Shown piece after piece: positions 3,069 to 63,836 of a stretch of 64,000 nt of DNA; within the stretch, counting starts at the first letter, position 1, and every line of letters starts with the position of its first letter. The notes under the pieces were generated by a model. That model saw only the letters and a list, made by a program, of their open reading frames with translations, did not search any database and was not told the origin of the DNA. The position numbers and the translations under genes were made by a program. The DNA comes from Haliotis rufescens. Lineage: Eukaryota. Location of the stretch: assembly GCF_023055435.1 (NCBI RefSeq), contig NW_025963857.1, positions 2,418,001 to 2,482,000 of the forward strand, read 5' to 3'.

Positions 3069-3169
3069 TATATTGAGTATATTATTAAAAGAAAACTCGC
3101 AGGAACAAACGGCGGGGAAGCAAACAAACAGGTATAAGGGTAAAGACAACCAAATACACGGACAGGCAG

Positions 3170-5990
3170 ATCGAGCATACCAAACACAAGGACTGCAGAC
3201 GGGCACACCAAACACAAGGACAGCGGGTCGGCACACCAAACACAAGGACAGCAGATGGGCACACCAAACACAAGGACAGCAGATGGGCACACCAAACACA
3301 AAGACTGCAGACGGGCACACCAAACACAAGGACAGCGGGTGGGCACACCACATACAAGGACAGAGGAAGGGCACATCAAACACAAGGACAGCAGATGGGC
3401 ACACCAAACACAAGTACAGCAGATGGGCACACCAAACACAAGGACAGCGGATGGGCACACCAAACACAAGGACAGCGGGCGGGCACTCCACATACAAGGA
3501 CAGAGGAAGGGCACATCAAACAAAAAGACAGCAGATGGGACACCAAACACAAGTACAGCAGATGGGCACATCAAACACAAGGACAGCGGATGGGCACACC
3601 AAACACAAGGACAGCGGGTGGGCACACCACATACAAGGACAGAGGAAGGGCACATCAAACACAAGGACAGCAGATGGGCAAACAAAACACAAGAACAGCA
3701 GATGGGCACACCACATACAAGGACAGAGGTCGGGCACAACACATACATGGACAGAGGGCGGGTGGACACACCCAATATAAGGACAGCGGGCGGGCACAAC
3801 ACATACAATGACAGCGGGTGGACACACCCAATACAAAGACAGCAGACGGGTACACCACATACAAGGACAGCAGACGTGCACACAACATACAAGGACAGAG
3901 GGCGGGCAGACACCAAATACAAGGACAGGAGGCTGAAACACCAAATACAAGGACAGCGGGCGGGCACACCACATATATGGACGGACACTCCAAATACAAG
4001 GCCAGCGGGGCACACCTAATACAATCTCGGGCACACCACATACATGGATCAGAAGGCGGGCGGACACACCAAATACAAGGACAACGAGCTGGAGGGCGGG
4101 CACACCACATACAAGGACAGCGGGCGGGCACACTCAAACACAGGGACAGGGGACAGGCACACCAAACACAAGGACAGGGTACAGGCACACCAAACACAAG
4201 GCCAGCGGGGCACACCAAATACAATATCGGGCACACCACATACATGGATCAGAAGGCGGGCGGGCACACCACATATACGGACAGCGGGCGGGCACACCAC
4301 ATACAAAGACAGCGGACGGACACACCAAACATGAGGATGGCAGACCACATACAAGGACGGGAACACCAAACACAAAGACAGCGGACGGACACACCAAACA
4401 TGAGGATGGCAGACAGGCACACCACATACAAGGACAGGGGACAGGTACACCAAACACAGGGACAGGGGACAGGCAGACCACATACAAGGACAGCGGGCGG
4501 GCACACCAAACACAGGGACAGGGAACAGGCACACCAAACACAGGGACAGGGGACAGGCACACCAAACACAGGGACAGGGGACAGGTACACCAAACACAAG
4601 GACAGGGGGCAGGCACACCAAACACAGGGACAGGGGACAGGCACACCAAACACAGGGACAGGGGACAGGCACACCACATACAAGGACAGGGGGCAGGCAC
4701 ACCACATACAAGGACAGGGGACAGGTACACCAAACACAGGGACAGGGGACAGGCAGACCACATACAAGGACAGCGGGCGGGCACACCAAACACAGGGACA
4801 GGGGACAGGCACACCAAACACAAGGACAGGGGACAGGCACACCACATACAAGGACAGCGGGCGGGCACACCAAACACAGGGACAGGGGACAGGCACACCA
4901 AACACAGGGACAGCGGGCGGGCACACCAAACACAGGGACAGAGGACAGGCACACCAAACACAGGGACAGGGGACAGGCACACCAAACACAGGGACAGGGG
5001 ACAGGTACACCAAACACAAGGACAGGGGGCAGGCACACCAAACACAGGGACAGGGGACAGGCACACCAAACACAAGGACAGGGGACAGGCACACCACATA
5101 CAAGGGCAGCGGGCGGGCACACCACATACAAGGACAGGGGACAGGTACACCAAACACAAGGACAGGGGGCAGGCACACCAAACACAGGGACAGGGGACAG
5201 ACACACCAAACACAGGGACAGGGGACAGGCACACCAAACACAAGGACAGGGGGCAGGCACACCACATACAAGGACAGGGGACAGGTACACCAAACACAGG
5301 GACAGGGGACAGGCACACCAAACACAAGGACAGGGGACAGGTACACCAAACACAAGGACAGGGGACAGGCACACCACATACAAGGACAGCGGGCGGGCAC
5401 ACCAAACACAGGGACAGGGGACAGGCACACCAAACACAGGGACAGGGGACAGGCACACCAAACACAGAGACAGGGGACAGGCACACCACATACAAGGGAC
5501 AGAGGATTGGCGGGCACACCAAACACAGGGACAGGGGACAGGCAGACCACATACAAGGACAGCGGGCGGGCACACCAAACACAGGGGCAGGGGACAGGCA
5601 CACCAAACACAGGGACAGCGGGCGGGCGCACCAAACACAGGGACAGAGGACAGGCACACCAAACACAGGGACGAGGACAGGCACACCAAACACAGGGACA
5701 GGGGACAGGCACACCACATACAAGGACAGCGGGCGGGCACACCAAACACAGGGACAGGGGACAGGCACACCAAACACAAGGACAGGGGACAGGCACACCA
5801 CATACAAGGACAGCGGGCGGGCACACCAAACACAGGGACAGGGGACAGGCACACCAAACACAGGGACAGGTGACAGGCACACCAAACACAGGGACAGGGG
5901 ACAGGCACACCACATACAAGGGACAGAGGGTGGGCGGGCACACGAATAAAATGGACAGAGGGCGGGCGGACAAATGCAGGACAGCCTGAC
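3170..5990. repeat. Minisatellite, ~28-bp unit (GGCACACCAAACACAGGGACAGGGGACA and variants)
   Basis: Direct tandem copies. ORFs in many frames on both strands show 28-residue periodicity. Confidence 0.95.
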
Positions 5991-8717: not shown

Positions 8718-8868
8718 TCTAGTGGTTAAAGCTTTCGCTCGTCACGCCGAAGACCCGGGTTCGATTCCCGACATGGGTACAATGTGTGAAGCCTATTTCT
8801 GGTGTCCCCCGCCGTGTTATTGCTGGAATATTGCTAAAAGCGGCGTAAAATCAAACTCACTCACTCAC
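8718..8868 (+). mobile_element. SINE family A, slightly 5'-truncated
   Basis: B box GGTTCGATTCC, GTC anticodon-like loop, (CACT)n tail, 14-bp TSD TCTARATAAAGTGG at 8704-8717 and 8869-8882. Confidence 0.9.
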
Positions 8869-11842: not shown

Positions 11843-12835
11843 TGCAACCAAAGACATGGCCTGAATGCTGTGACGTGTATGGAAGGTTGACTATATGTAT
11901 TCCAAAGAGAACAAATTTGTTATTTAATAATGCTTACCTGGTGATAAACTGTGATTAACGATGTCTCAAGTATGTATCACCTTTGTCATGATGTCCCGGA
12001 CTGTGATCCGTAGATCCCACGTGATTCTTGTTCTACACCAATCATCTGTACATGTTGTGAGCTTACAACACTGCCACAGCAAACTCCTTACACGTCATGT
12101 GTGTGTTTTATAGGTGTACAATGGTGACACTCGCAATGTATTTTTACATGGGAACGCTATTCCGGTGATACGGTGATGGCACTGCATATCTCACTGGTAT
12201 ACACTGTGGTCCAGAGACTCTCTATTGTGATAGCTGTTTCACCAGTACTGGTTTGTATGTCTTTCACTATACATGAGTAAATCTCTAATCATGGTATATA
12301 TATTAATGAATACATATATATATATATGAATGAAGCTCATAGTTGTCAAAATTTTGTACGTTTTATTTTTCGAATTGACGTTGTCTATTTGTTATACATT
12401 TGCAGTAATATTACAGTAAGATGTATATTATGCTAATTGTTATTCATATAAAAGAAAGTGCCACTGACTGCCGCTGTTCCGTCGTTATTTATTTCCACAC
12501 TTAACACGTTAATGTGAATTCCACTCTTTTTCACTTTGTTATCGTTAATTCATACAACTCAAGCTATTCGAGTCGGATGTTATCGTTATACACCGAAGCT
12601 GACCCATCTGTCTTAAAAAGCGCTAAATGTAAATAGAACACTGTACACTATCGTTGCTGAATCTGTTTTAAACGAGAGCGTTTAAAGAACAGGTCGTGTT
12701 TGTTGAAGCTGTTATCGTCAAATACGTCATCTCTTCATTTAAAATACCTTGTCTCAGACTATCATTGCAATATGTTGTTAGTCTTTAAAAAAGGTTAAGC
12801 ACCATCTCTGCTTTAATTGCTTATATACAATCACC

Positions 12836-13063
12836 TTGAACATCCGGGTTCTAATTGGTCTTCAGCAACCCATGCTTGTCGTAGTCAACAACAGGGTCGG
12901 GTGGTCAGGCTCGCTGACTTGGTTGATGCATGTCATCGTATCCCAGTTGCTTAGATTCGTGCTAATGATACGTCAATCACGGGATTGTTTGGTTCAGACC
13001 AAGTTATTAACGGACCCCCGTCATATAGCTGGAATAGTGCTCAGTGCGGCGTTAACAAACAAC
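12836..13063 (+). mobile_element. SINE-like family C copy (diverged)
   Basis: GGTCTTCAGCAACCCATGCTTGTCGTA...GGGTGGTCAGGCTCGCTGACTTGGTTGA...ATATAGCTGGAATAGTGCTCAGTGCGGCGTTAAC. Confidence 0.8.
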
Positions 13064-13884: not shown

Positions 13885-14709
13885 CTTAATCTGTTTCCTA
13901 AAATTAATGAACATTTCTAGAAATGGTTTGAGCACATCGTCAATCATGTAAATATTGCAACCCACTTTCCATTATCATAAGAAAATCTGGTAAAATCCTT
14001 GTTCGAATCCGACTACTTGAACCTGCACTCTTCAAATCTTCAACGCTTTGAGAAATGTTTTTCGAAATATAACAACTAGATTGGTCTTGGAATGTATACA
14101 TAAAAGCCACAAAACTTAATTGCATCATCATAAGAAATCTAAAAAGCAGAGTCCATCCGACTATATCACAAGCATCTGTGGCAAAGTGAGGCTAACACTG
14201 GGGAGGTATGTGATTGACTATAAGACTTCGCTGTGAAGACAATGGATGGATTTATCTCTGCTCTACTCTGTCATGTGAACACATTAACACCATAATTGCA
14301 TGCAACGAAGACAATTGGTTAACAATCGTTACAAGATGCAACATTAACCCGGAAAGGACTTATGTTTCCGTGCATGACATTATTAGAATGTATACAATGA
14401 AAGCTCGTTGTGTTGAGACCTCGTTAATGCGGAGGCATTAAAACCGGCATTAGTCAGGACTGAGCAAAAGGAGCCGCACACCCTGTGCTCTATAAAAGTG
14501 AAAAAATCTTTAACGCGACGTTAAACCCCATTTCAGCTCACCTCACTTATTGGTAGCGCTCAGCCGAGGAATGGACCTCTGTCCAGTCAGGTTCATCGGT
14601 GTCATTTCCATTTTGGTTTAGTATGCAAGAAATAATTACCCTACTTCCCCAATTATTAATTCCACTGGATCTGGATTGTTAAGAGAGCACTGAGACGTTT
14701 ATGATCAAG

Positions 14710-15287
14710 TACTATGGTACCACTACTACTACCACCACTACTACTATTACAACTACCACTACTACTACTGATACTGCTGCTACAACCACTACTACTACTG
14801 CCACTGCCGCTACTACTACCACTACCACTACTACAACAACCACCACTACTACTACTACTACTACTACTGCCGCTACAACCACTACCACTACTGCTACAAC
14901 CGCTACTACTACTACAACTACCACTGCTACTACTGCTTCTGCTACAACCNNNNNNNNNNNNNNNNNNNNNNNNNNNNNNNNNNNNNNNNNNNNNNNNNNN
15001 NNNNNNNNNNNNNNNNNNNNNNNNNNNNNNNNNNNNNNNNNNNNNNNNNNNNNNNNNNNNNNNNNNNNNNNNNNNNNNNNNNNNNNNNNNNNNNNNNNNN
15101 NNNNNNNNNNNNNNNNNNNNNNNNNNNNNNNNNNATCTGTCACTGCCACTACTACTACTACTACTACTACCACCATTACTACTACAACTACCACTGCTAC
15201 TACAACTACTGCTACAACCACTACTACAACTGTCACTTCTTCTTCTACTACTACTACTACTACTACTTCTACTACTACTACTGCTGC

Positions 15288-15318
<31 letters not shown>

Positions 15319-15528
15319 ACTGCTGCTGCTACAACCACTACTACTACTGTCACTTCTACTACTTCTACTACTACTACTACTACTACTACTACCACTACTA
15401 CCACTACAACTACTACTGCTACAACCACTACTATTTCTGTCACTACTACTACTAGTACAACTACTACCACTACTACAACTACCACTACTACTACTGCTGC
15501 TACAACCACTACTACATCTGTCACTGCG

Positions 15529-15563
<35 letters not shown>

Positions 15564-15850: not shown

Positions 15851-16336
15851 ATTACTGATGAAAAACAACTATAACGCAGTATTCCTATACTTCTCCGAGA
15901 ATAACTCACAAATCCAAATCAGATGCTTGCAACACACGGTACTACACCCTTTCCGTGGTATTTCGACATCATAGGCCCACAGCTGAATCTGCTTATGTAT
16001 ATGCGTTGTGAATTGCGTCAGAATAAAGCCATCAAATGCAATGCATGATGGTGAGGATGAAACGTTTGTCGCTGTTGTGAATAGCTCTGCAAACAACAAC
16101 CTTTAAATAATCAAACCCTGAACCATACGAAAAGAGAAATCATTTGCTAAATGTGATAAAGTTTATTTTATATTTTATCAATTTTATGTATTAAAAAGCG
16201 ACAAAAACTTTTCATAATCATAAAATAATACACGTTTAATCATATCAGTCGTAGATACATATTCATGGACACTTGCTTTGCATTTCCAATGGTGTTTACA
16301 TATTTCCCAGGCTAACATATATGTTTTATACAATCA

Positions 16337-16616
16337 GTGAGTGAGTGAGTTGGGCTTGACGCCGCTTTTAACAGTATTCCAGTTATATCACGGCGTGTCA
16401 GCTTAATGTGGGAGGAAAGCCCGAATTGATGCAGGTCTCAGACGTTTACCACTTCGGTGAAACCCACGAGCATGGGTATGGTGCTGACAAACCTAGAAAC
16501 ATAATCGGGGCGAACCGGGATTCGAACCCACAATCATAGGTTTCTGGCGTGCCCAAGGGACGCAACTCTGCACAGCGAATCGCGCCGCCTTAGACGACTG
16601 GGTCACCCGTGCCCCC
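16337..16616 (-). mobile_element. SINE family B, full length
   Basis: A-box-like GTGACCCAGTCGTCTAAGG, B box GGTTCGAATCC, shared tail, (CACT)n, TSD TTATACAAYCA at 16326-16336 and 16617-16627. Confidence 0.9.
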
Positions 16617-17040
16617 TTATACAACCAAGTAACCCTGTAGTCGATATCTGGTGGCATTCAACGAGAGGACAGCGCTCACACTGTTGATATCTTTGATCTG
16701 ATTGTCTTCAATGTACTTGCGTTATGCCACTATTTCTCACATCCTGAATCAAAGCTGTCCGGTCGTGTATGTTTCATAATGTCATAAGCAGGTTTATTTG
16801 ATGTAAATATAACAGTTATAGAACGGTCAAGAAACTTATAGATGTGTTCATTACATCCTCTTGGTCGTGCCTTTGTTGAGCTATGCCCGTACTTTACTGT
16901 GAAACCGAGATGAATGAAACCCTTTATTTAAATGTTTTCGTGAGGGCCATTTTATTCTGTCACTGCTGTGAGACAAACAATTTATTCTGTGAAAGAAGGA
17001 GCCCGTAATTAAGAAAGTTCACATAGAGCGAGTTCAACAT

Positions 17041-18372
17041 TTGGTTGAGCCCTTACCTATCATTGATTACAGAACATCACGTGGTTGAGCCCTTACCTAT
17101 CATTGATTACAGAACATCACGTGGTTGAGCCCTTACCTATCATTGATTACAGAGCATCACGTGGTTGACCCCTTACCTATCACTGATTACAGAACATCAC
17201 GTGGTTGAGCCCTTACCTATCATTGGTTACAGAACATCACGTGGTTGAGCCCTTACCTATTATTTATTACAGAACATCACGTGGTTGAGCCCTAACCTAT
17301 CCTTGATTACAGAACATCAGGTGGTTGAGCCCTAACCTATCACTGATTACAGAACATCAGGTGGTTGAGCCCTTACCTATCATTGATTACAGAACATCAA
17401 GTGGTTGAGCCCTAACCTATCATTGATTACAGAACATCACGTGGTTGAGCCCTAACCTATCATTGATTACAGAACATCACGTGGTTGAGCCCTAACCTAT
17501 CACTGATTACAGAACATCACGTGATTGAGCCCTTACCTATCATTGATTACAGAACATCACGTGGTTGAGCCCTAACCTATCACTGATTACAGAACATCAG
17601 GTGGTTGAGCCCTTACCTATCATTGATTACAGAACATCACGTGGTTGAGCCCTTACCTATCATTGATTACAGAACATCATGTGGTTGAGCCCTTACCTAT
17701 CATTCATTACAGAACATCATGTGGTTGAGTCCTTGCCTATCATCGATTACAGAACATCACGTGGTTGAGCCCTTACCTATCATTGATTACAGAACAACAC
17801 GTGGTTGAGCCCTTACCTATCACTGATTACAGAACATCACGTGGTTGAGTCCTTACCTATCATTGATTACAGAACATCACGTGGTTGAGCCCTTGCCTAT
17901 CATTGATTACAGAACATCACGTGGTTGAGCCCCTACCTATCATTGATTACAGAGCATCACGTGGTTGAGCCCTTACCAATCATTGATTACAGAACATCAC
18001 GTGGTTGAGCCCTTACCTTTCATTGATTACAGAATATCACGTGGTTGAACCCTTGCCTATCAATGATTACAGAACATCAGGTGGTTGAGCCCTTACCTAT
18101 CATTGATTACAGAACATCACGTGGTTGAGCCCTAACCTATCATTGATTACAGAACATCACGTGGTTGAGCCCTCACCTATCATTGGCTACAGAACATCAC
18201 ATGGTTGAGCCCTTACCTATCATTGATTACAGAACATCACGTGGTTGAGTCCTTACCTATCATTGATTACAGAACATCACGTGGTTGAGCCCTTACCTAT
18301 CATTGATTACAGAACATCAAGTGGTTGAGACCTCAGCTATCATTGATTACAGAACATCACGTGGTTGAGCCA
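17041..18372. repeat. 40-bp satellite, ~33 copies (GTGGTTGAGCCCTTACCTATCATTGATTACAGAACATCAC)
   Basis: Phase-perfect head-to-tail units with point variants and no spacers. Confidence 0.97.
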
Positions 18373-20989: not shown

Positions 20990-21620
20990 CATCAGAAATC
21001 CACTGCACGATTCCGGCTATGTCATAACCATGTGTTTATGATTCACTATCAAATAGGGTTGAAACCAGGTGTCAGCGTATCGTACCCCACCTGTAAGCAC
21101 CCACCACAAACACTTGCAAAGGCAAGTCAACTGTTCACCTTAAAAACACGGGAACATGTGGTACACTCAAAAAAGGAAGAGTAAGAGTCGTATGACGCTC
21201 TTTGAAATATTTGTAGAAAGAGCTTGCACGACCGTACCTCAGACGTTGTGAAATGTAGACACCAAAGATTGCTCGACATAAAGGGAAAAATGGTTATTGG
21301 AAAGTTAATGTCTTTTCTTTCTTTCTTTGTTGTTAAACGCCGCACTCAGCAATATTCCAGCTACATGACGGTGGTCTGTTAATAATCGAGTCTGGAACAG
21401 ACAATCCTGTGATTGACATCATGAGCATCGATCCACGTAATTGGGACCGATGACATGCATCAGCCAAGTCAGCGAGCCTGACCACTCGATCCCGTTAGTC
21501 GCCTCTTACGACAAGCATAGTCGCCTATTATGGCAAGCATGGGTTGCTGAAGACCTATTCTACCCCGGATGAAAGTTAATGTCACCCATCTTGTCATATA
21601 GTCGAATCAGGGAACAATAT
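20990..21620 (-). mobile_element. Naiad-type Penelope-like element 3' fragment (RT C-terminus plus 3' UTR), interrupted by a SINE
   Basis: Minus strand reads RLYDKMGDINF|PITIFPFMSSN, matching the YDKRDDFNFPIVNFPFLSSN PLE motif, followed by a degraded 3' UTR motif. Confidence 0.75.
21313..21570 (-). mobile_element. SINE-like family C, slightly 5'-truncated, inserted into Naiad RT sequence
   Basis: Perfect 13-bp TSD GAAAGTTAATGTC at 21300-21312 and 21571-21583. Confidence 0.92.
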
Positions 21621-26157: not shown

Positions 26158-26443
26158 TGAGTAAGTGAGTGAGTGAGTTGGGTTTAACGCCGCTTTTAAC
26201 AGTATTCCAGTTATATCACGGCGTGTCAGCTTGATGTGGGAGGAAAGCCCGAAGTGATGCAGGTCTCAGACGTTTACCACTTTGGTGAAACCCATGAACA
26301 TTGGTATGGTGCTGACAAACCTAGCAACATAATCAGGGCGAACCGGGATTCGAACCCACAATCATAGGTTTCTGGCGTGCCCAAGGGACGCAACTCTGCA
26401 CAGCGAATCGCGCCGCCTTAGACGACTGGGCCACCCGTTTCCC
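26158..26443 (-). mobile_element. SINE family B, full length
   Basis: 13-bp TSD CTTGTCATAATAG at 26145-26157 and 26444-26456. Confidence 0.92.
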
Positions 26444-26646
26444 CTTGTCATAATAGGGAATAGACATAGGTTATGATCTCTTTCGCGAACACCCGGTGTT
26501 ATTACAATTTTCAGCGAGCCATTGTATAAATTTCACCTCTTTTTTGCCTTTTACGCTCAATGGAATCTTTATTTTCGAATAACCCAGTCTGGTTATTTTC
26601 TGGCGTGTTGACGTTTCATATTTATGTTTTTGGAATATAGCATATA

Positions 26647-28060: not shown

Positions 28061-30485
28061 TGTCCTGATGTGAATACATGTGTGTTTACTTACTTTTAGC
28101 GCACCTTCCACCTGTATATACAATTACAGCTTCAGGGTGAGGGAAAGCATTTGCGATCGGAATGTAGCGTGAAAACTCTAACAAACTAAGTCAACAAAAT
28201 CAGAGACCATATGTCAGACTGGTGAAGATTAATAACAATAATCATCAGTGTAAAAAGAGAAAACTGTATCCTAGGGAGCTGCTTGTAAAGCACAAAATAT
28301 CCCAAAAGGTTGTTCCGAAAAAAATGGTGAAAGATTTTAGCACTGCTGTTAAAAATAACACGTTGGTCTTCTATCTAACACAGCGAGGCATTTTCCCCAC
28401 CCTCGCCCCATGGTGTACCTCCAGGATCACCCCACGATGTTTCCACAGCTCTTGTTATCAGCGTTTAGGGATGCCGCGATGTAAACATAGAACTGGGGCG
28501 ATCTTAACGGCCTGTACAAGATACACCACGGATAAAGTGATGGTGTAAGTTTATACACGAGACGAAACTCACCATAAGAACGCAGCGGCTGTAGAGGGGG
28601 TGATTCTTACATCTAGACGCGTGCACATGACGTCATCTGTATCGGGCACCTGTCATCACAAGATATGACTGTTTGGTCTTCGTGAGGGGTGAGCATCCGT
28701 TTATCTCAATCTCTCCAGGATGTGTGGTTTATTATGCACTTTCTTCTTGAGGATTCCGATTACCTTGTTAAATAAAATTGGTATAATCAGTGAAGAGACA
28801 AAATACGCAACGATCTTTTACGTCATCAGTATAAATACAATGAGCTCTCGAGGACGAGTATCAGTGAATGGAAAGTACTCCATGTCACGTGATATGGTAT
28901 TCGCTTGTTACAAAGATCGAATTATATGAAGATGCATGGACTAGACATTGTTTATCATTATTTAATTTGTGCTATGTACAAATAGCCTTTTTACCAGCAG
29001 CACAGTATTTTGAGAGAATAAAAACGGCTTAGTCATTTAAGGTAATCTGCTCTGTAGATCGTGGGTTCGAATCCCAGATTTGTCCCCGTTTTAATCCATA
29101 TTTTGTCAAAACTGTAGAAATTGATGGACCTGGCTTGAAACGTCACTTGAGTGTGGTATTATCTATCAACTAATGCAAAGGCTTTTTACAGAGTCTGGCC
29201 ATTTACATTTGATATGGTATTTCTCTCGGTTGTGAAACTATGTAGACACTATAATGACAATATTTCTGCAGGCTTAATTAAGTTTACGCCAATGTTTTGT
29301 CACGTGGGACAGTGGCGTGAAGCCTTACAAAACTGTTTGCTGTGTGATAGAGTTTATTCCGTAAAGAGGCCAACAGTGTACCAGTTACAGTGACCTGTGG
29401 ATTACAGTCAAAGAGCGCCCACTCATTATATCAATATATACAATGCACATAGTTCTTATAATATATTAAAATGTACAGTTTGTTTGTTTAGTTACTTATT
29501 CTTAAAAAGTAATCAGTACGTTTTTTGAGTGCGAAATATGTGAACTTAGCTCACCTGGGGTTAGAATTTACAAACAGCAATACTATCATTTGCTATCGTC
29601 GAATGTTCATAATGAAACTTTGGAAAAATACTTTCTCTGCGATAAAATACTTTTGACTGGCTTTGAACAGATATTGGAGACGTAAATGGTGTTTTGTTCA
29701 ACAAATAATATAATTCAAAATGGACCAAATCCACGTTTTCTCTCAATATTATACAATCTTCCCTGTTCTATCATTAAGTTATGACTGGAACATCTAAATG
29801 TACACAAAATCCTACGACAGGCATCATTGTTGATACAGGAAAGATAAGTTTCGTAAAAGAATTCCAGTTGTATAAGTCTAAAGAAATCTAACTTAGAGTA
29901 ACATACGATATTATCATTCCATACTTGAACATCAATATCCTTACAACGCTGGGTGAACTGATCAATAAATAGACCTTCATTTCCAGCGCCTTGTTCCTAA
30001 CCCATATCTTAATAACACTTGTTTCACACCCAAAGCCCAGCATCTTTGTCCCTTTCGGCTTTCTTCAAATGGATCGTATAAATATGTCTCAAGTCAACAT
30101 TATTCCCGTGACTTAAAACAGTCGTAGCCTCTGCTTTATCATCCTCTCACACAGAAGAACAAAAAGTTCCAACCTCCTCTCTTGCGAGCGGAATACCTTA
30201 TACTGGTCCTAATACTAACTTACAATGTCTATCATGTATAGCATCAATATCTAAAGATTGGTGGAAGCCCAAGACCTTAGTACCATACAATAGGATAAAC
30301 GTTGGTATCAAAACGTATGAAAGAACAGTTTAAAGAAATGTATATAAAGTTACAAGGTTTGATAGCAATATTTGAATAACTTTGTTGTGTATCTATATTC
30401 ATGTCCTATTATCCACAGCACACTGCATGTGTTTGTGGGGGTAATCAAAGAGGTAAACGACTAAGACTTGATTCATTTACTGTTT

Positions 30486-30738
30486 GACCCGTGATGATTC
30501 GGGGTAGAATAGGTATTCAGCAACCCATGCTTGTCGTAAGAGGTGACTATGCTTGTCGTAAGGGGCGACTGACGGGATCGGGTGGTCAGGCTCGCTGACT
30601 TGGTTGATGCATTTCATCGTTTCCTAATTGCTTGGATCGAAGTTCATGATGTCAATCACGTAATTGTATAGTCCACACTTGATTATTTACAGACGGCCGT
30701 CATATAGCTGGAATATTAAAAACAAACAAACAAACAAA
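30486..30738 (+). mobile_element. SINE-like family C, intact 5' end, double-hairpin head variant
   Basis: Starts GACCCGTG, ends (AAAC)n. Imperfect TSD CATTTACTGTTT / CATTTATGGTTT. Confidence 0.85.
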
Positions 30739-31569
30739 CATTTATGGTTTAGGCAAAATATTGAAGTCAGCGCTTCAGGCCATATTGTGTTCTCTTTGAG
30801 GAGATACTTAACAATTGTTCTGAATCCACATATTTTCGTCAGAGCATCGATTATGTCCAGAAACAGGATTATTTTGATGAAACCTGAAGTCAATCTTTGG
30901 GAACAGGTTATTTTTTTCAAACAAATTCTTGACAACTTGTGAGCGACCGTTTTAATGCTATTGTGTTCGGCGTAATTAGCATCTATCCGGCTCATCTAAA
31001 TTTTAGTGATATGAAATCGCACAGGACCATAATCATTCTTTCACGGGGTAGGGTTGAGTTATCCCGATCCATTGGTGGACACCATGTTTATTTCCTAAAT
31101 TTTAAATCAGGGAGGAGAATTTGTAAACAGACAACGACGTGTCTATATAAATTCTCCCTGACGAGCTCGAGGTTATCAAGAAAGAAGTGTGGTTCCATTG
31201 TTATCCAAATGTCTCAGCTCTGTTACAAGATGTAATCAGGTCAGGCCTTGATCCACAAATCGATATAGTCTTACTTCTGTCATCTATCCTAGATCTAAAG
31301 TCGTCGCTTCGATGAACGGTTACTTGAGAAAGTGATCATAAAAAACGTAAAAGGAAACGAAGGAACGGAAAACCACTAACTCAGATGTTCAAGTTAACAT
31401 GCTTTGTTTTTTTCTAATCTGAATTGCCACCTTGAAGATGACATGTTAAAATGTTACAACATATTAAACAATCAATATGCTGAATTAAATATTATTAAGA
31501 AATGAGTTTATAAAAGTACAAATAGCATGGATGCGTATCATCGAAGCCAGGTCCATCTTGTCTTTGTCC

Positions 31570-32400
31570 TTGTTAGTCACTCGATCATAGATCCATCTTG
31601 TGTCTACCCAATACCCACACTGGATTTCCTTGTTTGTCACTCGATCATCGACCCATCTTGTGTCCACCCAATACCCACACTGGATTTCCTTGTTAGTCAC
31701 TCGTCATCGATCCATCTTGTGTCCATCCAATACCCACACTGGATTTCCCTCTTTGTCACTCGATCATCGATCCATCCTGTCTCCCACTCTGGATTTCCTT
31801 ATTAGTTACACGATCATCGATCCATCTTGTGTCCACCCAATACCAACACTGGATTTCCTTGTTAGTCGCTCGATCATCGATCCATCCTGTCTCCCAAAAT
31901 CGATTTACTTGTTTGTCACTCGATCATCGATCCATCTTGTGTCCACCCAATACCAACACTGGATTTCCTTGTTAGTCACTCGATCATCGATCCATCCTGT
32001 CTCCCACACTCGATTTACTTGATTGTCACTAGATCATCGATCCATCTTGTGTCCACCCAATACCCACACTGGATTTCCTTGTTAGTCACTCGATCATCGA
32101 TCCATCCTGTCTCCCACACTCGATTTACTTGTTTGTCACTCGATCATCGATCCATCTTGTGTCCACCCAATACCCACACTGGATTTCCCTGTTTGTCACT
32201 CGATCATCGATCCATCTTGTGTCCACCCAATACCCACACTGGATTTCCTTGTAAGTCACTCGATCATCGATCCATCTTGTGCCCCATACTGGATTTCCTT
32301 ATTAGTTACACGATCATCGATCCATCTTGTGTCTACCTAATACTCACACTGGATTTCCTTGTTAGTCACTCGATCATCGATCAATCTTGTATCCACCCAT
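31570..32400. repeat. ~60-bp tandem repeat with shorter deletion variants
   Basis: Unit GTCACTCGATCATCGATCCATCTTGTGTCCACCCAATACCCACACTGGATTTCCTTGTTA. Confidence 0.92.
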
Positions 32401-33149
32401 TTTACCCACCACCCACTTTTACGTCGCTTCTTTCGTACGAGGTATATAATATATTGAAAATCTTGAATGACTGTTTATCTGTATAATAATACACACAGGG
32501 GCAGAGTGAAATAAGCACAAGCGACTTAACGAAGTACCATTATATGAGTTCAAAGCAGTCCCATCATCTAACGGTTGTGGTAGTTCAAAGAGCTCAGTAA
32601 TGGATAGTCTTTCCCGAGATAGCGTACCTTTCCGCCATGTCGTTGACCGTATTAGAAATGAATTGAGATAATTGTGAGCGAAGAATCCAGGCCTCAAGAC
32701 ATGATCTCCAAGTACGGTGACAGGTAGCAAGAACAGAACTTACTCCTCCGAAATATATGTGATGTAAGAAAGAGTGAGTATGGTGGTTAGAGGATATGGC
32801 TGGTTTGGGTTGTTGGGGCAGGGGTGTTAGTGGTGTGTGTGTGTGCATTGAGGAGGACACGTACTCGGGGTGATATTGTGGAGGGAGAGAGGGGAAAGTA
32901 AGACTTAGTAACACGGCAGTGTCGATGGTATATTCAGTTGGCAAATCCTTAGGACAGCCCCGGGGGACAACACATGTTTTTGTAATTTTGTGACATCGGA
33001 ATTACCCATCGGTCCAATTACCAATTACCAATTTCTAGTACGGAGTCACTAAGGTAATACCCTTAGGATCTCAAAACTTTCTTTGAAGCTAGGGGAAACG
33101 TTCTGCGCACACTTCGGCCACGTTAAATGTTTTTTGGTTACTGCTTTTT

Positions 33150-34451: not shown

Positions 34452-34651
34452 TGTTTGTTTGTTTTTTTGTTTGTTTGTTTGTTTGCTGTTAAGCGCCGCA
34501 CTCCTTCCAGCTACATGACGGTGGTCCAAAAAATAATCGAGTCTGGACCAGACAGTCCAGTGATTGACATCATGAGCATCGATCCACGCAATTGGGATAC
34601 GATGACATGCATCAACCAAGTCAGCAAGCCTGACCACCCGTCCCGTTAGTC
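34452..34651 (-). mobile_element. SINE-like family C, 5'-truncated
   Basis: Body and tail match the other C copies; (TTTG)n on plus. Confidence 0.85.
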
Positions 34652-37230: not shown

Positions 37231-37253
37231 AAAGGCAAGTGAACTATGCTTGA

Positions 37254-37415
37254 GTGAGTGAGTATGGTTTTACGCCGCTTTTAGCAATATTCCAGCAATA
37301 TCACGGCGGGGGACACCAGAAATGGGCTTCACACATTGTACCCATGTCGGGAATCGAACCCGGGTCTTCGGCGTGACGAGCGAACGATTTAACCACTAGG
37401 TTACCCGACCGCCCC
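37254..37415 (-). mobile_element. SINE family A, full length
   Basis: A and B boxes, tRNA-Asp-like head, 13-bp TSD GAACTATGCTTGA at 37241-37253 and 37416-37428. Confidence 0.93.
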
Positions 37416-37537
37416 GAACTATGCTTGAACTCAATTGCATCTCACGGTACCAGGATACTATAACCGTAGGTCGAATCCCATATTTGCCCTGTCCATGAAC
37501 CTGTGTTCGTCATGGCCTTGGCGTTCACTAACATGGT

Positions 37538-37760
37538 TGGTTTGTTTGTTTGTTGTTTTACGCCGCACTCAGCAATATTCCAGCTATATGACGGCGGTCA
37601 GTAAATAATCGAGTCTGGACCAGAAAATCCAGTGATTTATATCATGAGCATCGATCCACGCCATTGGGAACGATGACATCCATCAACCAAGTCAGCGAGC
37701 CTGACAACCCTATCCCGTTAGTCGCCTCTTACGACAAGCATAGTCGCCTTCTACGGCAAG
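37538..37760 (-). mobile_element. SINE-like family C, 5'-truncated
   Basis: 12-bp TSD CACTAACATGGT at 37526-37537 and 37761-37772. Confidence 0.92.
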
Positions 37761-38406
37761 CACTAACATGGTAAATCACAGAGAGCTGCATCGGAGTTTC
37801 CTTCAACATCTGGCTATGGGATGTACCTAAAACAGTGTTCAAACAGCGTTGATACTCGTCACAAACATTTCACTCTTTTTGCCACGTCTTTACTTAAATT
37901 TCCGTACTGAGGAAGCCACAGTTCTTATAAGTAGTAGCTTTTTGTTATATAATAAAACAATATTGCCATGTCAATACAGTTGGAATTTTTTTTATCAGAA
38001 CACTGCGTAAACAAAATCATATAAACTCGAATACCATACATGTTGGTTAATATATGAGGAATTACTCATATTCAAGAGCTATTTGATTGGTTCGACGCCT
38101 AAACGAACATACTGGTATGTTGTGTAATCTACGCTCATGAACGCATCACATGTGACTTCAAAGACCCATGACTTGAGATGCCCCATTTGTCTCTTGCAGA
38201 ATTAGCGTGTAAAGTTTGGAAATCACGTGCAGCATATCGTGATAAGAATAAGTACACTCTGTGGTAACACTTAGTTTTGTCATTAAGTTATACACACTGG
38301 AAATATCTCTTCATACTTCTCTATATGTTTCTTTGGTTTGCGTGGCGGTGAGTATATATGACAACCAAGTCGACATCAGATATGTAAGTCAAGAAGATCT
38401 GAAACT

Positions 38407-44996: not shown

Positions 44997-45276
44997 GTGG
45001 GCACGGGTGGCCCAGTCGTCTAAGGCGCCTCGATTCGCTGTTCAGAGTTACGTCCCTTGGGCACGCCTGAAACCTATGATTGTGGGTTCGAATCCCGGTT
45101 CGCCCCAATTATGTTTCTAGGTTTGTCAGCACCATACCCGTGCTCGTGGGTTTCACCGAAGAGGTAAAAGTCTGAGACCTGCATCACTTCGGGCTTTCCT
45201 CCCACATTAAGCTGACACGCCGCGATATAACTGGAATACTATTAAAAGCGGCGTTAAACCCAACTCACTCACTCAC
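44997..45276 (+). mobile_element. SINE family B, full length
   Basis: 12-bp TSD TGATAATGGAAG at 44985-44996 and 45277-45288; A and B boxes. Confidence 0.93.
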
Positions 45277-45359
45277 TGATAATGGAAGAGGAGAATATGC
45301 TGTCTTTAGCACGTGTTTGAAGATCTCATGGATGTTTATACTTAGCTTTAACGCTGGCA

Positions 45360-45545: not shown

Positions 45546-46914
45546 AAACACCATACTTTGTGTATTCTATTTAGTCTCACGTTCTTGATGTTCAAAGAAG
45601 GTAATTAAATGTTAAAAGAGTATAACTTTGTTTGTTAGGATTATAGGTCCCCAGCAACCAACTGAATGAGTCGGTGGTGAGGCTCGGTGACCAGGTTGAT
45701 TGCATGTCATCGTTTTGAACGTTGCTCATAATATCAATGATTGGTTGGTCTGATTCTGTAACAGGACACCGTCATATAGGAGGAATGTTGCTGAGTGTGG
45801 CGTTAAACAACAAACAGACTGAAAAAATACTGATTAAACATGAAAATATCTTCATGAAAACACCACAAATGTTGCTGTTTTTTTCAAATGCGTTCTTCTC
45901 CCATGCTATGCAATGTGTAACAGTAGAAAATCATTTTTATATTTTAGTCAAAAGTTTCTGTCTTCAAGACAATGTATTTTAATAAACTACAATATGTCAA
46001 AATATCACAATATCGCAATATGATTGTAATAGCATGATACCTTTTGCCTTTGTGGGCATGTTAAACACTGACTAACACATGGTGCAATCTGAGCTCCTGT
46101 TCTTATGTTCTATCTGCCCCGAGTCAGCACTTTATCACGTACAAACATATTAGCGCCTTTCGTTTCTTTAGGTAAATATGCTAGGATTAAATGGAATTAA
46201 AGGTAAATATCCCCAGAAATGTTTAATATATGATAACACAGCATGTACGAGTACAACACCTCACAAACTGACTGCAACTTCACTCTGATATGTCGTGAGG
46301 TATTTTTGAACCATTTATCAGAATGTTTTGAAATACAGACGCATGTAAATGGCCGATCTTGCTTTTTAAAACGCTTTGATAATAGATGTACTGAAAAAAG
46401 GGTTTTCCTCATTATGAATTAAATAATAATATGCCACAAACTTATATCAGAAAGGCTTTGGGTAGCCACAGAGTTCGTGGCAATTCTAAATGCACAATAA
46501 TTGTCATAAACGTTTGTCAACAAGTACTAACATTTAACTTACTTTGGAATGCCGCGTCCATTGTATCGAACCCCCGACATCCAGGCAGTCGCTAAACAAA
46601 CAACAACATGGAGGCAGTCGTGCTGGTCAACAGCAAATTAAATCGGCAAATAGCAACAACAAAAATAGTTTCTGCAAATACGTAGCTCAATCGTCTTAGA
46701 ATGAAAACATAACCAACAAACATAATAAAAATATGCAAAAATCAACATTATACCACATCTTTTTTTACGTTTCTATATATAATATAAAATAAAAATATTT
46801 TGACATGACGTATTGATACTGAATCTGGGGTATATATATATATAGTTTTTGTGATGTCACGGTTTCTGTCATGACATTTTAGAATTGGCACAAGGATTTA
46901 ACCTCATGATAATC

Positions 46915-47640
46915 ACTCTTCACGCAATAAAACTCTTCACTTCCGCTGTCATCAAACAGTTGTCATCACTTCCGCTGTCATCAAACGGTGCTCATCACTT
47001 CCACTGTCATCAAACAGTTCTCATCACTTCCACTATCATCAAACAGTTCTCATCACTACCACTGACATCAAACAGTTTTCATCACTTCCACTGTCATCAA
47101 ACAGTTCTCATCACTTCCACTGTCATCAAACAGTTCTCATCACTACCACTGTCATCAAACCGTTTTCATCACTTCCACTGTCATCAAACAGTTCTCATCA
47201 CTTCCACTGTCATCGAACAGTTCTCATCACTTCCACTGTCATCAAACAGTTCTCATCACTTCCACTGTCATCAAACAGTTCTCATCACTTCCACTGTCAT
47301 CAAACAGTTCTCATCACTTCCACTGTCATCAAACAGTTCTCATCACTTCCACTGTCATCAAACAGTTCTCATCACTTCCGCTGTCATCAAACAGTTCTCA
47401 TCACTTCCACTGTCATCAAACAGTTCTCACCACTACCACTGTCATCAAACAGTTTTCATCACTTCCATAGTCATCAAACAGTTCTCATCACTTCCACTGT
47501 CATCAAACAGTTCTCATCACTTCCATTGTCATCAAACAGTTCTCCTCACTTCCATTGTCATCAAACAGTTCTCAGCACTTCCATTGTCATCAAACAGTTC
47601 TCAGCACTTCCACTGTCATCAAACAGTTTTCATCCCTAAC
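46915..47640. repeat. 29-bp minisatellite, ~25 copies (CACTTCCACTGTCATCAAACAGTTCTCAT)
   Basis: Tandem units; the ORF shows 29-residue periodicity. Confidence 0.95.
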
Positions 47641-48292
47641 GCTGTCACCAGCAGTGCTGTTTGTATAAATATCTTCTTTCTCGTTACATGATCAATTCAC
47701 CGATATGAAATGACTCAGGGAACCACGGAACTGTTCTGTTTACCTGTTGTTGTTTTGTGCTGCTTTCTCGATTCCAGTTTACCAGTTTCAGATTATGATA
47801 AATATAGGACACAGTTGGAACTCAACACTAATATCTACTCAGCAGTATACTTGTACACACAGGCAGTCTGACTACCTAAAGACCCACATTGACTTTGACA
47901 TTTGACATTACATAGACATACATATTACAAATATTTCAAGTGCTCGTTTGATGACCTATTTCAGTTATCACCAAAAGTTTTTTAAATATATCTGGGACAT
48001 TGATGTGGCCTTGTATGTTTGGTATATTGACGGAAAGGGGCACCGCCCCACAACGTCAATACAATGTCAACACAATTCTATGTAGAGTTCCTATTACTTC
48101 TAAAAGCTCATACAACTTGCACTACACACATCATTGTCTTATTCAGGTTAACAGGAAGCGGTTGATATTTCCCATATTGAAAAACACGAGTTGTTAATTC
48201 TGTTTATCATGTCCAGTGTTCCCCATTTAAAAATAAACCGAAATTGTTCAAAATTTTACCGAACATTCAGCGTGTAGATACACTTATTTCTT

Positions 48293-52282: not shown

Positions 52283-52536
52283 TTTTGTTTGTTGTTTAAC
52301 GCGGCACTCAGCAATATTCCAGCTATATGACGGCGGTTTGTAAATAATCTAGTCTCTACAAGACAATCCTAGAGTGAAATTGTCCAGTGCTTGACAATTT
52401 GGTATCGATCTATGCAATTGGGATGCGATTATATGCATTAACCAAGTCAGCGAGCCTGACCACCCGATCCCATTAGTCACCTCTTACGACAACCATGGGC
52501 TTCTGAAGACCATTCTGACCCCAATCTTCACGGGTC
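52283..52536 (-). mobile_element. SINE-like family C, full length, single-hairpin head variant
   Basis: 9-bp TSD CGTCGCAAT at 52274-52282 and 52537-52545; 5' end GACCCGTGAAGAT. Confidence 0.88.
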
Positions 52537-52920: not shown

Positions 52921-53159
52921 AGATACTTGTTTATGAATTGCCCATGAGTGTGATAACTGTATGCTTTAATTGACATATGCTATGATTAATTGCCCCATAA
53001 GCAACTTTCTCATACCTCTTGTTTAAAGTGGAATGATCCACTGTGCTGGTCAAAAGTATTAGGTAAATGTAGTAGCAGTTTAAAACAGTGAATCCAAAGT
53101 GTATTTGCTCATGTGGGTTTATTTATTCAATCAATGAGCCTAAAATCAATCAACTCAGT

Positions 53160-53840
53160 TAGGTGTGACCTGTACTGGTTAACCACGATCCTTGCGTGAC
53201 CTGTAATTGTTAGTCACGATCTTAGTGTGACCTGTAATTGTTAGTCACGATCTTGGTGTGACCTGTACTGGTAAGTCACGATCTTAGTGTGACCTGTAAT
53301 TGTAAGTCACGATCTTGGTGTGACCTGTACTGGTTAGTCACGATATTGGTGTGACATTTACTGGTAAGTCACGATCTTAGTGTGACCTGTAATTGTTAGT
53401 CACGATCTTGGTGTGACCTGTAATTGTTAGTCACGATCATGGTATGACCTGTAATTGTTAGTCACGATCTTGGTGTGACCTGTACTGGTAAGTCACGATC
53501 TTAGTGTGACCTGTAATTGTAAGTCACGATCTTGGTGTGACCTGTACTGGTTAGTCACGATCTTGTTGTGACCTGTACTGGTAAGTCACGATCTTAGTGT
53601 GACCTGTAATTGTAAGTCACGATCTTGGTGTGACCTGTAATTGTAAGTCACGATCTTGGTGTGACCTGTACTGGTTAGTCACGATCTTGGTGTGACCTGT
53701 AATTGTTAGTCACGATCTTGGTGTGACCTGTAATTGTTAGTCACGCTCTTGGTATGACCTGTAATTGTTAGTCACGATATTGGTGTGACATGTAATTGTT
53801 AGTCACGATCTTGGTGTGACCTATTCTGGTAAGTCACGAT
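53160..53840. repeat. 31-bp minisatellite, ~22 copies (GGTGTGACCTGTAATTGTTAGTCACGATCTT)
   Basis: Tandem units, each with a GTGAC/GTCAC inverted pair. Confidence 0.95.
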
Positions 53841-54492
53841 TCAAATTATATTCATCAACCTTAAAGCATAATTCCATAAATAATAGAGAAAGATATTGTC
53901 GAGAGAGGACCTAAACATTTACCAGGATCATTTCATCTGGCAAATAGTTCAATGGTCACCTTGGCGTGACCTGTAAGACTATTGACTTGACCAGAGACGG
54001 CTGTTGTACTGAGAGCATGCAGTGGTGAGATTACACAGATTGTCCTGCTACAGACCTTAATTGAGGTTCTGTTAGTGACAGGAGTATTGAAGGGTGCAGC
54101 ATTAGACAAGAAACCCAAAATTGTTTTTTTTAAGAAAATGGTGAGTGGTCGTCACTACCCGTTGAGCAGGACATGTTTACCTCATGTCATTGTCGATGAG
54201 AATCAGTTCCACATGGGATAAGTTCCACCGGAAAAATATTGCCGGTGTAAATTTATCAGAAAATTTCTTTCTTTTAATAAACACCGTTCCATTTGAATAA
54301 TTCTCCTGAGAAATATAGCACAAAGGCACAATTTCACTACATGAACAGGTACTCTTTTACACTATTACTGATTTCCAGTGATCGATTCATACAATTTTCA
54401 TCACTGTTTTGCCCTTTACACCGAAGGTATTGCTTCCAGTCAGTGTCTGTTTTAATTACCATATGCACATTCATATATGTGTTCATTTCACA

Positions 54493-56595: not shown

Positions 56596-57514
56596 ATTAA
56601 GACAGAAAAAAAAGTCACATGATATTTGTTCCGCTTTTAGTTAACATATTATTGAATAACGAGATTATCTGTTATTCTCCATGGATTATAGATTATAGAA
56701 GTTATATTCTGTGAGAAAAGTGCCAAATTTCAATTTCTTTGTGATTTGAAACCTGTGATTGACCAATAAGGATCAAGAGTTTTGAAATGTCATGATATAA
56801 TGTTAGTAAATATTAATATATTACCTTTTCAGAATATTTTCTTCATTGTGTTAGGATGTTAAAACGTATCTGTAAATGCATGTTTCCAAAGACTCTTTTG
56901 AATATATCCTCTGACCAATGAAATGGAAACTGTACTTTCTAAAGACATTTTGTATATTAGTTTCGCGTTTCATACATTCCACCTGCACATGTTGGATTTG
57001 TTCGAGGTAGGGATGAATATGATAATTCAAATTATTTCTTAAGATCAACAGTGTACAAATATGGTCGGTCGAATAATTGTTACCTCGAAAGTGAAGAACT
57101 ACGCCCCAGCACGTGCCGATCGTAGTTCTTGGGAATATATGGAGACGATCACAAAAGCTGCCACTCCCTGATCTGATCTCACACAGCGTATTGAATCCAA
57201 TAGAAACAACACGATACCCCTTTACGAAATCAAGATGTTGGCCATTCCAAGGGTTAGAATAAAGGACAGTCATGACAAGATGAAAGTTACACTTCACTGC
57301 TGCCAGCTTTAGTAGTTCACAAAAAGTCCAAACGTCAACGCTAGAAAATAGGAAGTCTCGTTTATCTGCCGAAACAGATTCCATTCGGCGTAAGGAGCAC
57401 AATGGTGACACATCAAATATATATGAATGGATCCCTGAAAGTCGGCAATGGCACCAAGTGTTAGGGAAAAGGCATATATACTCGAGAAATTCAGTTGTTG
57501 ATATACAAAACAAG

Positions 57515-58506
57515 CAGGGAGATCCAGTTATTCACATATGAACATGCATGTATACCTGGCAGATCCAGCTGATCACATATGGACATATATGTATAGCTGG
57601 CAGATCCAGTTGTTCACATATGGACATGTATGTATAGCTGGCAGATTCAGTTATTCACATATGGACATGTGTGTATCTGGCAGATCCGGTTGTTCACATA
57701 TGGACATGTATGTATAGCTGGGAGATCCAGTTATTCACATATGGACATGTGTGTATCTGGCAGATCCGGTTGTTCAGATATGGACATGTATGTATAGCTG
57801 GGAGATCCAGTTATTCACATATGGACATGTATGTGGACATGGCAGATCCAGGTAATCACACATGGACATGAACGTATAGCTGGCAGATCTAGTTGTTTAC
57901 ATATGGACATGCATGTCTAACTGTGAGATCCAGTTATTCAAATATGGCCATACATGTATAGCTGGGAGATCCAGTTACACACGTATAGACATGTATGTAT
58001 AGCTGGGAGATCCAGTTATTCAGATATGGACATGCATGTATAGCTGGCAGATCCAGTTGTTTACATATGGACATGCATGTATAGCTGGGAGATCCAGTTA
58101 TACACATATGGACATGCATGTATAGCTGGGAGATCCAGTTATTCAAAAATGGACATGCATGTATAGCTGGTAGATCTAGTTATTCACATATGGACATGCA
58201 TGTATAGCTGGGAGATCCAGTTGTTCACATATGGACATGCCTGTATAGCTGGCAGATCTAGTTATTCACATATGGACATGCATGTATAGCTGTGAGATCC
58301 AGTTATTCACATATAGACATGCATGTATACCTGGCAGATCCAGTTATTCACATATTGACATACATATAATAGCGGGGAGATCCAGTTATTCACATATGGA
58401 CATGTATGCATAGCGGGGAGATCCAGTTATTCACATATGGACATGCATGTAAAGCTGGGAGATCCAGTTATTCACATATGGACATGAGCGTATAGCTAGG
58501 AGATCA
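57515..58506. repeat. 41-bp satellite, block 1
   Basis: Unit GATCCAGTTATTCACATATGGACATGCATGTATAGCTGGSA. Confidence 0.95.
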
Positions 58507-61745: not shown

Positions 61746-61894
61746 TGATGGCGCTGTGGTCGTCAAAGTCGTACCCTCTCCAACGGAGCATGTCTGACAT
61801 CACGATGAAAAAAACCCATAAAACCCATTAAACAATTGACGATTGGCTTGTATGCTCAACACAATTCTGATATAACAGCAAGGAATAATACAAG

Positions 61895-63573: not shown

Positions 63574-63836
63574 TTTGTTTGTTGTTTAACGCCGCACTCA
63601 GCAATATTCTAGCTGTATGACAACGGTCTGTAAGTAAAAGAGTCTGGACCTGACAATTAAGTGAGTTACATTATGAGCATCGATCCACGCAATTGGGATA
63701 TGACGACATGCATTAACCAAGTTAGCGAGCCTGACCACCCGATCCAGTTAGTCGCCTTTAACGAGAACAATAGTCGCCTTTTACGGCAAGCATGGGTTGC
63801 TGAAAACCTATTCTACCCCGGATCTTCACGAGTCCC
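63574..63836 (-). mobile_element. SINE-like family C, full length, double-hairpin head
   Basis: TSD CTMTCTCAAGT at 63563-63573 and 63837-63847; 5' end GGGACTCGTGAAGATCC. Confidence 0.88.

Follow-up and report, generated by a model that had tools for sequence, protein, structure and literature searches.

The element that begins at position 30,486 of the window, by which we mean the whole 64,000-nucleotide stretch from Haliotis rufescens analyzed here, is a copy of a retroposon of about 255 bp that lacks a tRNA head and has target-site duplications (TSDs) on both sides. Its first ~65 bases, which are common to the 5' ends of RNase-H LINEs and to the 3' UTRs of RNA viruses, are predicted to fold as a pseudoknot plus a hairpin. 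We tentatively regard this head as an exoribonuclease roadblock that resembles the exoribonuclease-resistant RNAs (xrRNAs) of viruses, rather than as an RNA that cuts itself.

A BLAST search with the 30486 copy revealed seven copies and an older fragment in the window. The first-pass annotation had described three TSD-bounded copies that begin at the head, and all three were recovered at 30486 (+), 52536 (-), and 63834 (-). Its more general statement that the family starts precisely at the knot holds for these three; three others, on the minus strand with their 5' ends at 21570, 37762, and 34651, are truncated at positions 12, 43, and 82 of the element, two of them with clean TSDs. The TSD of the 63.8-kb copy comprises 11-13 bp with mismatches, and that of the 52.5-kb copy 9 bp with an exact match. 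The features of the 30486 copy, followed by the further copies in the window, are:

30474..30485 (+): left TSD, alike in 10 of 12 letters with 30739-30750
30486..30738 (+): whole SINE copy, decayed, ~90% to the working consensus of the family, tail end deleted
30488..30491 (+): predicted pseudoknot stem 1, 5' strand, pairing with 30500-30503; the element starts 2 nt upstream
30492..30492 (+): loop 1, a conserved single U (T in 18/20 families, invariant in 8/8 aligned rows)
30493..30499 (+): predicted pseudoknot stem 2, 5' strand, pairing with 30512-30518; 5 of 7 pairs in this decayed copy, 7 of 7 in copy L002
30500..30503 (+): stem 1, 3' strand
30504..30511 (+): loop 3, 8 nt long in this copy (other families: up to ~127 nt), with the conserved AGAATA at its end
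30512..30518 (+): stem 2, 3' strand
30527..30548 (+): 22-nt hairpin unit, copy one; most family members have it in degenerate form
30549..30576 (+): second hairpin unit, with GCTT, a 4-bp stem with a 7-nt loop, a TAA-type linker, and a closing GGG; its enclosing stem is weakly supported
30577..30690 (+): SINE body, dissimilar to the 5' UTR of the examined LINE families
30691..30738 (+): LINE-type tail plus (AAAC)n, a stem-loop with a TGRAATATT loop, 3' arm partly deleted
30739..30750 (+): right TSD
52287..52536 (-): full-length copy with one hairpin unit and a 9-bp TSD
63577..63834 (-): full-length copy with two hairpin units and a TSD with mismatches
21326..21570 (-): copy 5'-truncated at position 12, 13-bp TSD
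37548..37762 (-): copy 5'-truncated at position 43, 11-bp TSD
34481..34651 (-): copy with a 5' truncation at position 82
12834..13062 (+): older, diverged copy with the hairpin partly deleted

The non-autonomous nature of the retroelement and its lack of A and B boxes, both claimed at the outset, were confirmed. The best match to an 11-nt B box has three mismatches in this SINE family, compared with none in three tRNA SINEs of the window; a loose 9-nt B-box match lies at position 149, and ARAGORN predicted no tRNA genes. An assignment to the tRNA-derived SINEs (SINE2) was rejected, as these have a tRNA-like head with A and B boxes. At the gathering score, Rfam gave no match in the whole window, and one good copy examined at E-values up to 10 gave five weak matches, among them no ribozyme, tRNA, 5S, or 7SL family. 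The tail is indeed common to the SINE and the local tRNA SINEs, in which the same tail stem-loop is present. Two tRNA-headed SINE families with perfect B boxes and this shared stem-loop are represented at 8719-8867, 16333-16614, 26164-26454, 37251-37440, and 44999-45280 of the window. Long minisatellite arrays occupy positions 3057-4850, 14632-15560, 16915-18370, 31509-32430, 46817-47780, 53039-53960, and 57388-62560, with units of 28, 9-15, 40, 50-60, 29, 31, 41 and 56 bp.

For a genome-wide view, we sampled 100 evenly spaced 10-kb stretches (1 Mb) of the element's own genome, picked without regard to the element. They contain 100 copies with an intact 3' end, which by rough scaling corresponds to ~130,000 copies in the genome. 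The starts of these 100 copies pile up at the head: 45 lie at base 1-2 and 54 at base 1-4, and the other 46 are scattered over positions 6-147. TSDs could be resolved in 24 of the 54 full-length copies, with ends of the (AAAC)n or (AACC)n type; 13 of the 24 junctions are flush with base 1, and four carry one additional letter (A, A, T, and G). In a set of 29 distinct copies selected by their head, the TSD was resolved in 12 and flush in 7. An extra G is not clearly discernible at the TSD-resolved junctions; in the SINE sample as a whole, G is slightly elevated at position -1, where it occurs in 18 of 54 copies compared with 7-15 at positions -2 to -6. A far TSD is the expected sign of carried-over upstream source flank; the 37 copies that lack a near TSD yielded just one, while shuffles gave 0-1; with carry-over at chance level, no copy bears witness to a read-through precursor. 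None of the 53 small-RNA reads available from three runs of a related organism, too few to be given weight, begins at base 1.

The 5' edge follows the first knot rather than the hairpin, since its offset to the loop-1 U is constant while the distance to the hairpin varies about twofold. In the SINE, in three host-repeat families, and in subfamily B of the LINE discussed below, the first shared base lies 6 nt before this U; the three host families, by contrast, have 52, 65, and 106-114 nt between stem 1 and the hairpin. The knot also occurs by itself in a minisatellite derived from the SINE head, with about eight 50-bp tandem units of the knot part only (head bases ~3-48) in L324:1250-1660, G000:C2 near 9.76 Mb, and a similar array in L042:1820-1870.

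The predicted fold consists of a stem 1 of 4-6 bp, a 1-nt U loop, a stem 2 of 7 bp, and a loop 3 of 8 to ~127 nt that ends in AGAATA. We evaluated it in 27 hand-picked representatives, one per family or virus (25 taken from 44 clusters, plus the SINE and the LINE), for which intact-looking heads were preferred and decayed-looking singletons and heads with a loop 3 of >140 nt were left out. When the 3' strand of stem 2 is fixed directly after GAATA, so that at most 11 pairs can form, at least 10 pairs are present in 20 of the 27 representatives, including all six viral ones, and all 11 pairs in 11 of them, whereas none of six chance pattern matches that served as negative controls attains this score. 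The H-type pseudoknot put forward by the first-pass annotation is hereby borne out by compensatory changes. The other seven representatives score 7-9, inside the shuffled range (shuffle mean ~8.4). Strands of stem 2 taken from the same family form 6.65 of 7 pairs on average, compared with 3.8 when they are combined across families. In a subset of eight rows that share one loop length and were chosen because they fit, 96.6% of the cells are paired, a value that none of 500 shuffles reached and that drops to 28-49% in slid registers; both-sided changes affect 9 of the 11 pairs, including all seven of stem 2. The T that follows CCCG is better read as a 1-nt loop 1 than as a base of stem 2, where it had been placed: it is T in 18 of the 20 well-scoring families, and the base opposite to it varies (A6/G5/T5/C4). 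The nested folding energy of single copies is not unusual (z -0.14 to 1.28 against shuffles); support for the pseudoknot is consequently purely comparative, and on these grounds the predicted structure is well supported. An enclosing third stem of at least 4 bp can be drawn in 22 of the 27 representatives, compared with 67% across families, and is weakly supported. Three SINE families among the metagenome repeats (L100, L132, and L188) have a low-complexity insert of 60-120 nt in loop 3, and both stems and the 5' edge are kept in them despite this insert.

The hairpin downstream of the knot has a 4-bp stem and a near-invariant 7-nt loop. Its motif occurs nine times in the window at up to three mismatches, compared with 0.55 occurrences expected, and none of 100 shuffles reaches nine. 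The tandem duplication of this hairpin, noted previously, is real in that one or two units occur; the duplicated piece is a 22-nt unit, and its upstream hairpin is mostly degenerate. The downstream hairpin reads GTCG/CGAC in 17 parsed copies, while the upstream one reads GCCG/CGAC or GCCG/TGAC in 16 and GTCG/CGAC in a single copy. Among the 54 full-length copies, 27 have two units, six have one, two are spaced differently, and 19 resisted parsing. The register originally assigned to the hairpin is backed by the one compensatory variant seen, CTCG/CGAG, which is present in L355, L360, L371, and L373. An alternative register with a 6-nt loop suits the degenerate upstream unit, but it was discarded in view of this variant.

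An old RNase-H LINE fragment ends in a tail related to that of the SINE. The LINE family to which the fragment belongs possesses endonuclease, RT, and RNase H domains and an ORF1, its tail folds around the same loop as the SINE tail, and its full-length copies carry the head at their 5' end. We refer to it as an I-group, Nimb-like LINE, a label based on its domains and on Matetovici et al. (2016) rather than on a tree. The proposed derivation of the head from a LINE is upheld insofar as the head starts a LINE, but the LINE in which both ends are found has an RNase H (Nimb-like) and is not an RTE; a link to RTE elements is retained through the one RTE with this head that is listed in the accessible parts of Matetovici et al. 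(2016; PMC4758252). Thirty further LINE copies were gathered through ORF1, which the motif precedes by ~400-600 nt; it likewise precedes an ORF1-like frame in L375. In subfamily A, two tandem knots are present, with the hairpin after the second. Of its 32 copies, 27 have their start at base 1 of the first knot, three at bases 12-14, and two further in, while the edge of the second knot, and hence of the complete motif, is the start in none. Subfamily A has a longer stem, and its start, at the base of this stem, precedes the loop-1 U by 8 nt. Subfamily B has a single knot, at which all four copies start, with T as the shared first base. The LINE start is preceded by G in 5 of 27 cases, again no clear sign of an extra G.

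Head and tail of the LINE examined are related, not identical, to those of the SINE; the SINE body has no match in the 5' UTRs of the LINEs examined, and the exact partner of the SINE was not found among these LINE families. We ruled out the youngest RNase-H LINE family (L313-L332) as a partner, given its different tail and the lack of a tail match at its end. This very young family, with 97-99.8% between copies and a (GTAA)n tail, has several open ORF2 frames of 1260 aa and is often found in tandem arrays on small contigs. The 5' ends of full-length Nimb-like LINE copies directly adjoin a SINE piece in L417:790-860 and L391, either through insertion into a SINE or through template switching.

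Beyond this genome, we searched with a pattern consisting of GAATA and the hairpin only, in which pairing was not required. At least 120 metagenome stretches match it, mostly members of three repeat families (39, 32, and 19 members among the matches listed) that we read as host DNA. The head motif is present in six RNA-virus contigs representing five distinct viruses, and five of these contigs have capsid or RdRp matches in Pfam:

L092 and L094: tetravirus-type capsid (Pfam)
L093 and L095: tombus-type RdRp, with or without a nodavirus-type capsid (Pfam)
L218: totivirus-type RdRp (Pfam)
L091: no Pfam match; RdRp-like motifs by eye

All six contigs have the motif on the coding strand, where it follows the last long ORF by 6-101 nt and lies 89-183 nt short of the contig end; L091 has a second tandem knot with other compensatory letters. 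None of the three whole viral contigs has a terminal overlap indicative of circularity. Relaxed viral scans did not uncover a new virus: one gave 20 matches (15 without a knot by inspection), two gave seven and four matches that were all known, and another gave four, none with a knot. A 212-kb AT-rich contig of a large DNA virus (L217 / L349) contains a complete knot-plus-hairpin between genes, ~190 nt before a 1056-aa frame and downstream of a gene for an NAD-dependent ligase. In prokaryotic genome assemblies, the pattern was matched 25 times and the motif was present in nine cases, in microsatellite-tailed repeats or before a LINE ORF1. These nine apparently represent eukaryotic (host) contamination, and the assemblies concerned (L355, L360, L363, L368, L369, L371, L373, L374, and L375) contain animal-type SINE/LINE sequence. 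The other 16 matches were judged by inspection to be due to chance, and four of them were used as negative controls.

If the predicted structure forms in vivo and resists nucleases, it would stop 5'-to-3' exoribonucleases at its base. Xrn-type trimming of longer or decapped transcripts, from whatever source of transcription these might stem, would then proceed up to the first knot, or the RNA would simply be protected from there on, and a sharp 5' edge would be the outcome. The downstream hairpin would constitute a second module, serving as a tertiary brace or as a site for a protein or translation factor, and the protein of an I-group (Nimb-like) LINE, the presumed partner, would recognize the shared tail stem-loop and insert the copy. 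We favor such a roadblock because it explains the edge, the tandem knots, and the place of the motif right after viral stop codons; the viral 3' UTR copies on the coding strand point to a function at the RNA level. Several observations stand against it. An internal promoter would be just as likely to produce a sharp 5' edge, the first bases are mostly purines, and a proximal promoter element with a floating distal box would also allow variable spacing; the excess of G at -1 (18/54) argues mildly in the same direction. Furthermore, loop 1 of the two-knot LINE is preceded by 8 rather than 6 nt, and a roadblock offers no explanation for the near-invariant loop of the hairpin.

More doubtful is the broader proposition that the motif represents a hitherto undescribed class of exoribonuclease-resistant RNAs of RNA viruses and animal retrotransposons, in which trimming by host Xrn enzymes sets the 5' ends so that neither a promoter start nor a ribozyme is needed. 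To our knowledge, internal promoters and ribozymes are the only known sources of precise 5' ends in non-LTR elements that lack a promoter or a tRNA head. If true, the roadblock would hence be a third way of making the 5' end of a retroelement, and more than 100,000 potential roadblocks to RNA decay would be present in one animal genome. The compact 65-nt fold could allow promoter, ribozyme, and roadblock to be separated in one set of in vitro assays.

It is rather unlikely, though a serious contender, that the DNA of the head acts as an internal promoter that sets the start at base 1, with the RNA fold serving in protection, translation, or the binding of a LINE protein. The Pr77 element of L1Tc exerts such a dual role as promoter and RNA. 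A promoter would account for the location of the head at the very 5' end of both LINEs and SINEs, for the missing upstream carry-over (1/37, chance level), for the slight G excess at -1, and for the efficient transcription that ~130,000 copies need. The mostly purine first bases fit as well, but the single-knot LINE subfamily has T as its first base (4/4 copies), the start of the two-knot subfamily is 58 nt further upstream and differs in sequence, and the distance between the start and the conserved boxes varies. A promoter is also what the LP-SINE authors themselves proposed, untested, for their elements (PMC4758252). A purely DNA-based promoter is insufficient since it leaves the covariation and the RNA-virus copies unaccounted for: the letters of the stems change freely while their pairing is kept, and the motif is present in RNA viruses. 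A promoter may nevertheless coexist with a role of the RNA.

We consider it improbable that the head belongs to an as yet undescribed class of self-cleaving ribozymes and, by cutting immediately 5' of stem 1, frees the element from co-transcripts. The fold of the HDV ribozyme is a nested double pseudoknot in which P3, L3, and P1.1 lie between the 5' strand of P2 and the 3' strand of P1, and its catalytic C is placed before a GAA/UAA linker. In our well-scoring families, the 0-1 nt between the 5' strand of stem 2 and the 3' strand of stem 1 leave no room for P3 and P1.1, and A, not C, precedes GAATA in 27 of 27 representatives. HDV, hammerhead, twister, and pistol ribozymes were set aside by inspection, since core letters or topology are missing, and Rfam returned no ribozyme (whole window; one copy at E-values up to 10). 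The near-invariance of the loop letters across LINEs, SINEs, and viruses and the frequent ability of the first base to extend stem 1 would suit a ribozyme, as would the ribozyme-defined 5' ends of other non-LTR elements (PMC6765202; PMC8501958) and the ribozymes reported from UTRs, mostly 5' UTRs, of linear RNA viruses (PMC13725137). Cleavage at the viral motifs would, however, remove the 3' end of linear genomes, and the three whole contigs have no terminal overlap. Self-cleavage is further disfavored in that a cutter consisting of the complete motif would be expected to eliminate the additional knot of LINE subfamily A, an event never seen (0/32 copies). The idea of the first-pass annotation that a structured RNA defines the 5' end survives as a LINE-derived structured head, while its ribozyme variant is weakened by the lack of HDV features, by these 32 copies, and by the viral 3' UTRs.

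We attribute an equally small probability to the notion that the head is a protein- or ribosome-binding RNA element, for instance a cap-independent translation enhancer, whose 5' edge is set by something else. It would serve as a 3' enhancer in uncapped viruses and as a 5' leader in LINEs, and the SINE would retain it for access to LINE proteins. The location downstream of the last viral ORF and ~400-600 nt before the LINE ORF1, the invariant loops, and the occurrence 5' of a long ORF in the contig of the large DNA virus (L217) are compatible with this, but the way in which element ends track the base of the first knot is left unexplained, and no described enhancer family in Rfam is matched.

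With regard to known systems, the SINE very probably corresponds to the published LP-SINEs of Haliotis and other molluscs (Hdi_LP and Hmi_LP; Matetovici et al., 2016; PMC4758252), a match made by description rather than letter for letter. As described in the accessible parts of that paper, LP-SINEs have no tRNA head but a ~70-bp head common to the 5' ends of two Nimb LINEs and one RTE, variable TSDs, a short tandem-repeat end, and a tail shared with other SINEs, all of which we found here; the Haliotis consensus of 255 bp compares with ~257 bp in our family when a few tail repeats are included. The AATATA hexamer before the Haliotis repeats, a remark rather than a definition in the accessible text, was not seen in the copies inspected, which may be a species difference. 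In those parts of the paper, a promoter is proposed for the head (LP stands for 'LINE promoter'), and neither a structure nor a viral link is mentioned. The snail SINE Pan_3 in its supplement shows the same hairpin and AGAATA linker, and the caption draws no connection to LP-SINEs (PMC4758252). The SINE family itself is thus probably already known; the new aspects, as far as the literature shows, are the fold, the viral link, and the tandem-knot test. Our literature search, from whose scope subscription journals, figures, Repbase, and Dfam were excluded, yielded no paper on this fold or on xrRNAs in retroelements, and a search for xrRNA folds in eukaryotic genomes was named as open in the accessible text of a 2021 review (PMC8374639).

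In having a LINE-type 5' end and a LINE-type tail but no ORFs, the SINE is akin to the bipartite non-autonomous LINEs and SINEs covered by Kojima (2018; PMC5786205); the donors given in the accessible parts of that study are RTE or Vingi elements, while an I-group, Nimb-like donor applies here, and the body is unlike the LINE UTRs examined. HDV-like ribozymes have been reported at the 5' ends of R2, L1Tc/NARTc, RTE, and SIDE elements, according to the portions available (PMC6765202). They differ from the present motif, which consists of one H-type knot and has neither P3/P1.1 nor the catalytic C position, and which in LINE subfamily A retains a tandem knot upstream of the full motif. Coremin (xrRNA-C), a short, near-invariant motif with a 4-bp hairpin that is found across unrelated RNA viruses, usually in 3' UTRs, is reminiscent of our hairpin; as far as its description could be consulted, it combines a YGAD-type loop with a spacer and a second hairpin but does not contain this pseudoknot (PMC10520033), whereas the 4-bp hairpin studied here has a 7-nt loop and is placed 3' of the knot.

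The closest parallel is to class 3 xrRNAs (ST9a/SCNMV/PLRV, tombus/luteo-type), in which, in the accessible account, an apical loop likewise pairs over 7-9 bp with a 3' strand (PMC8374639). These hairpin-loop pseudoknots lie near the start of viral 3' UTRs and stop Xrn1 at the 5' base of P1, and the pseudoknot is described in the available text as necessary but not sufficient (bioRxiv 2024.12.17.628992). In our element, too, the boundary falls at the 5' base of the first stem, with ends that are 0-2 nt upstream of stem 1, an arrangement that a start site would mimic. Class 3 xrRNAs have, as far as described in these sources, a P2, a J1/2 bulge, an L2B, and AGY, whereas the motif characterized here makes do with a single stem of 4-6 bp, whose loop is entirely taken up by the knot, and, unlike them, has a 1-nt U loop, the AGAATA loop, and a conserved downstream hairpin, and it resides in retroelements. 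Because the core motifs of class 3 are absent, the likeness does not signify membership; by analogy, it may instead indicate how the head of this SINE works.
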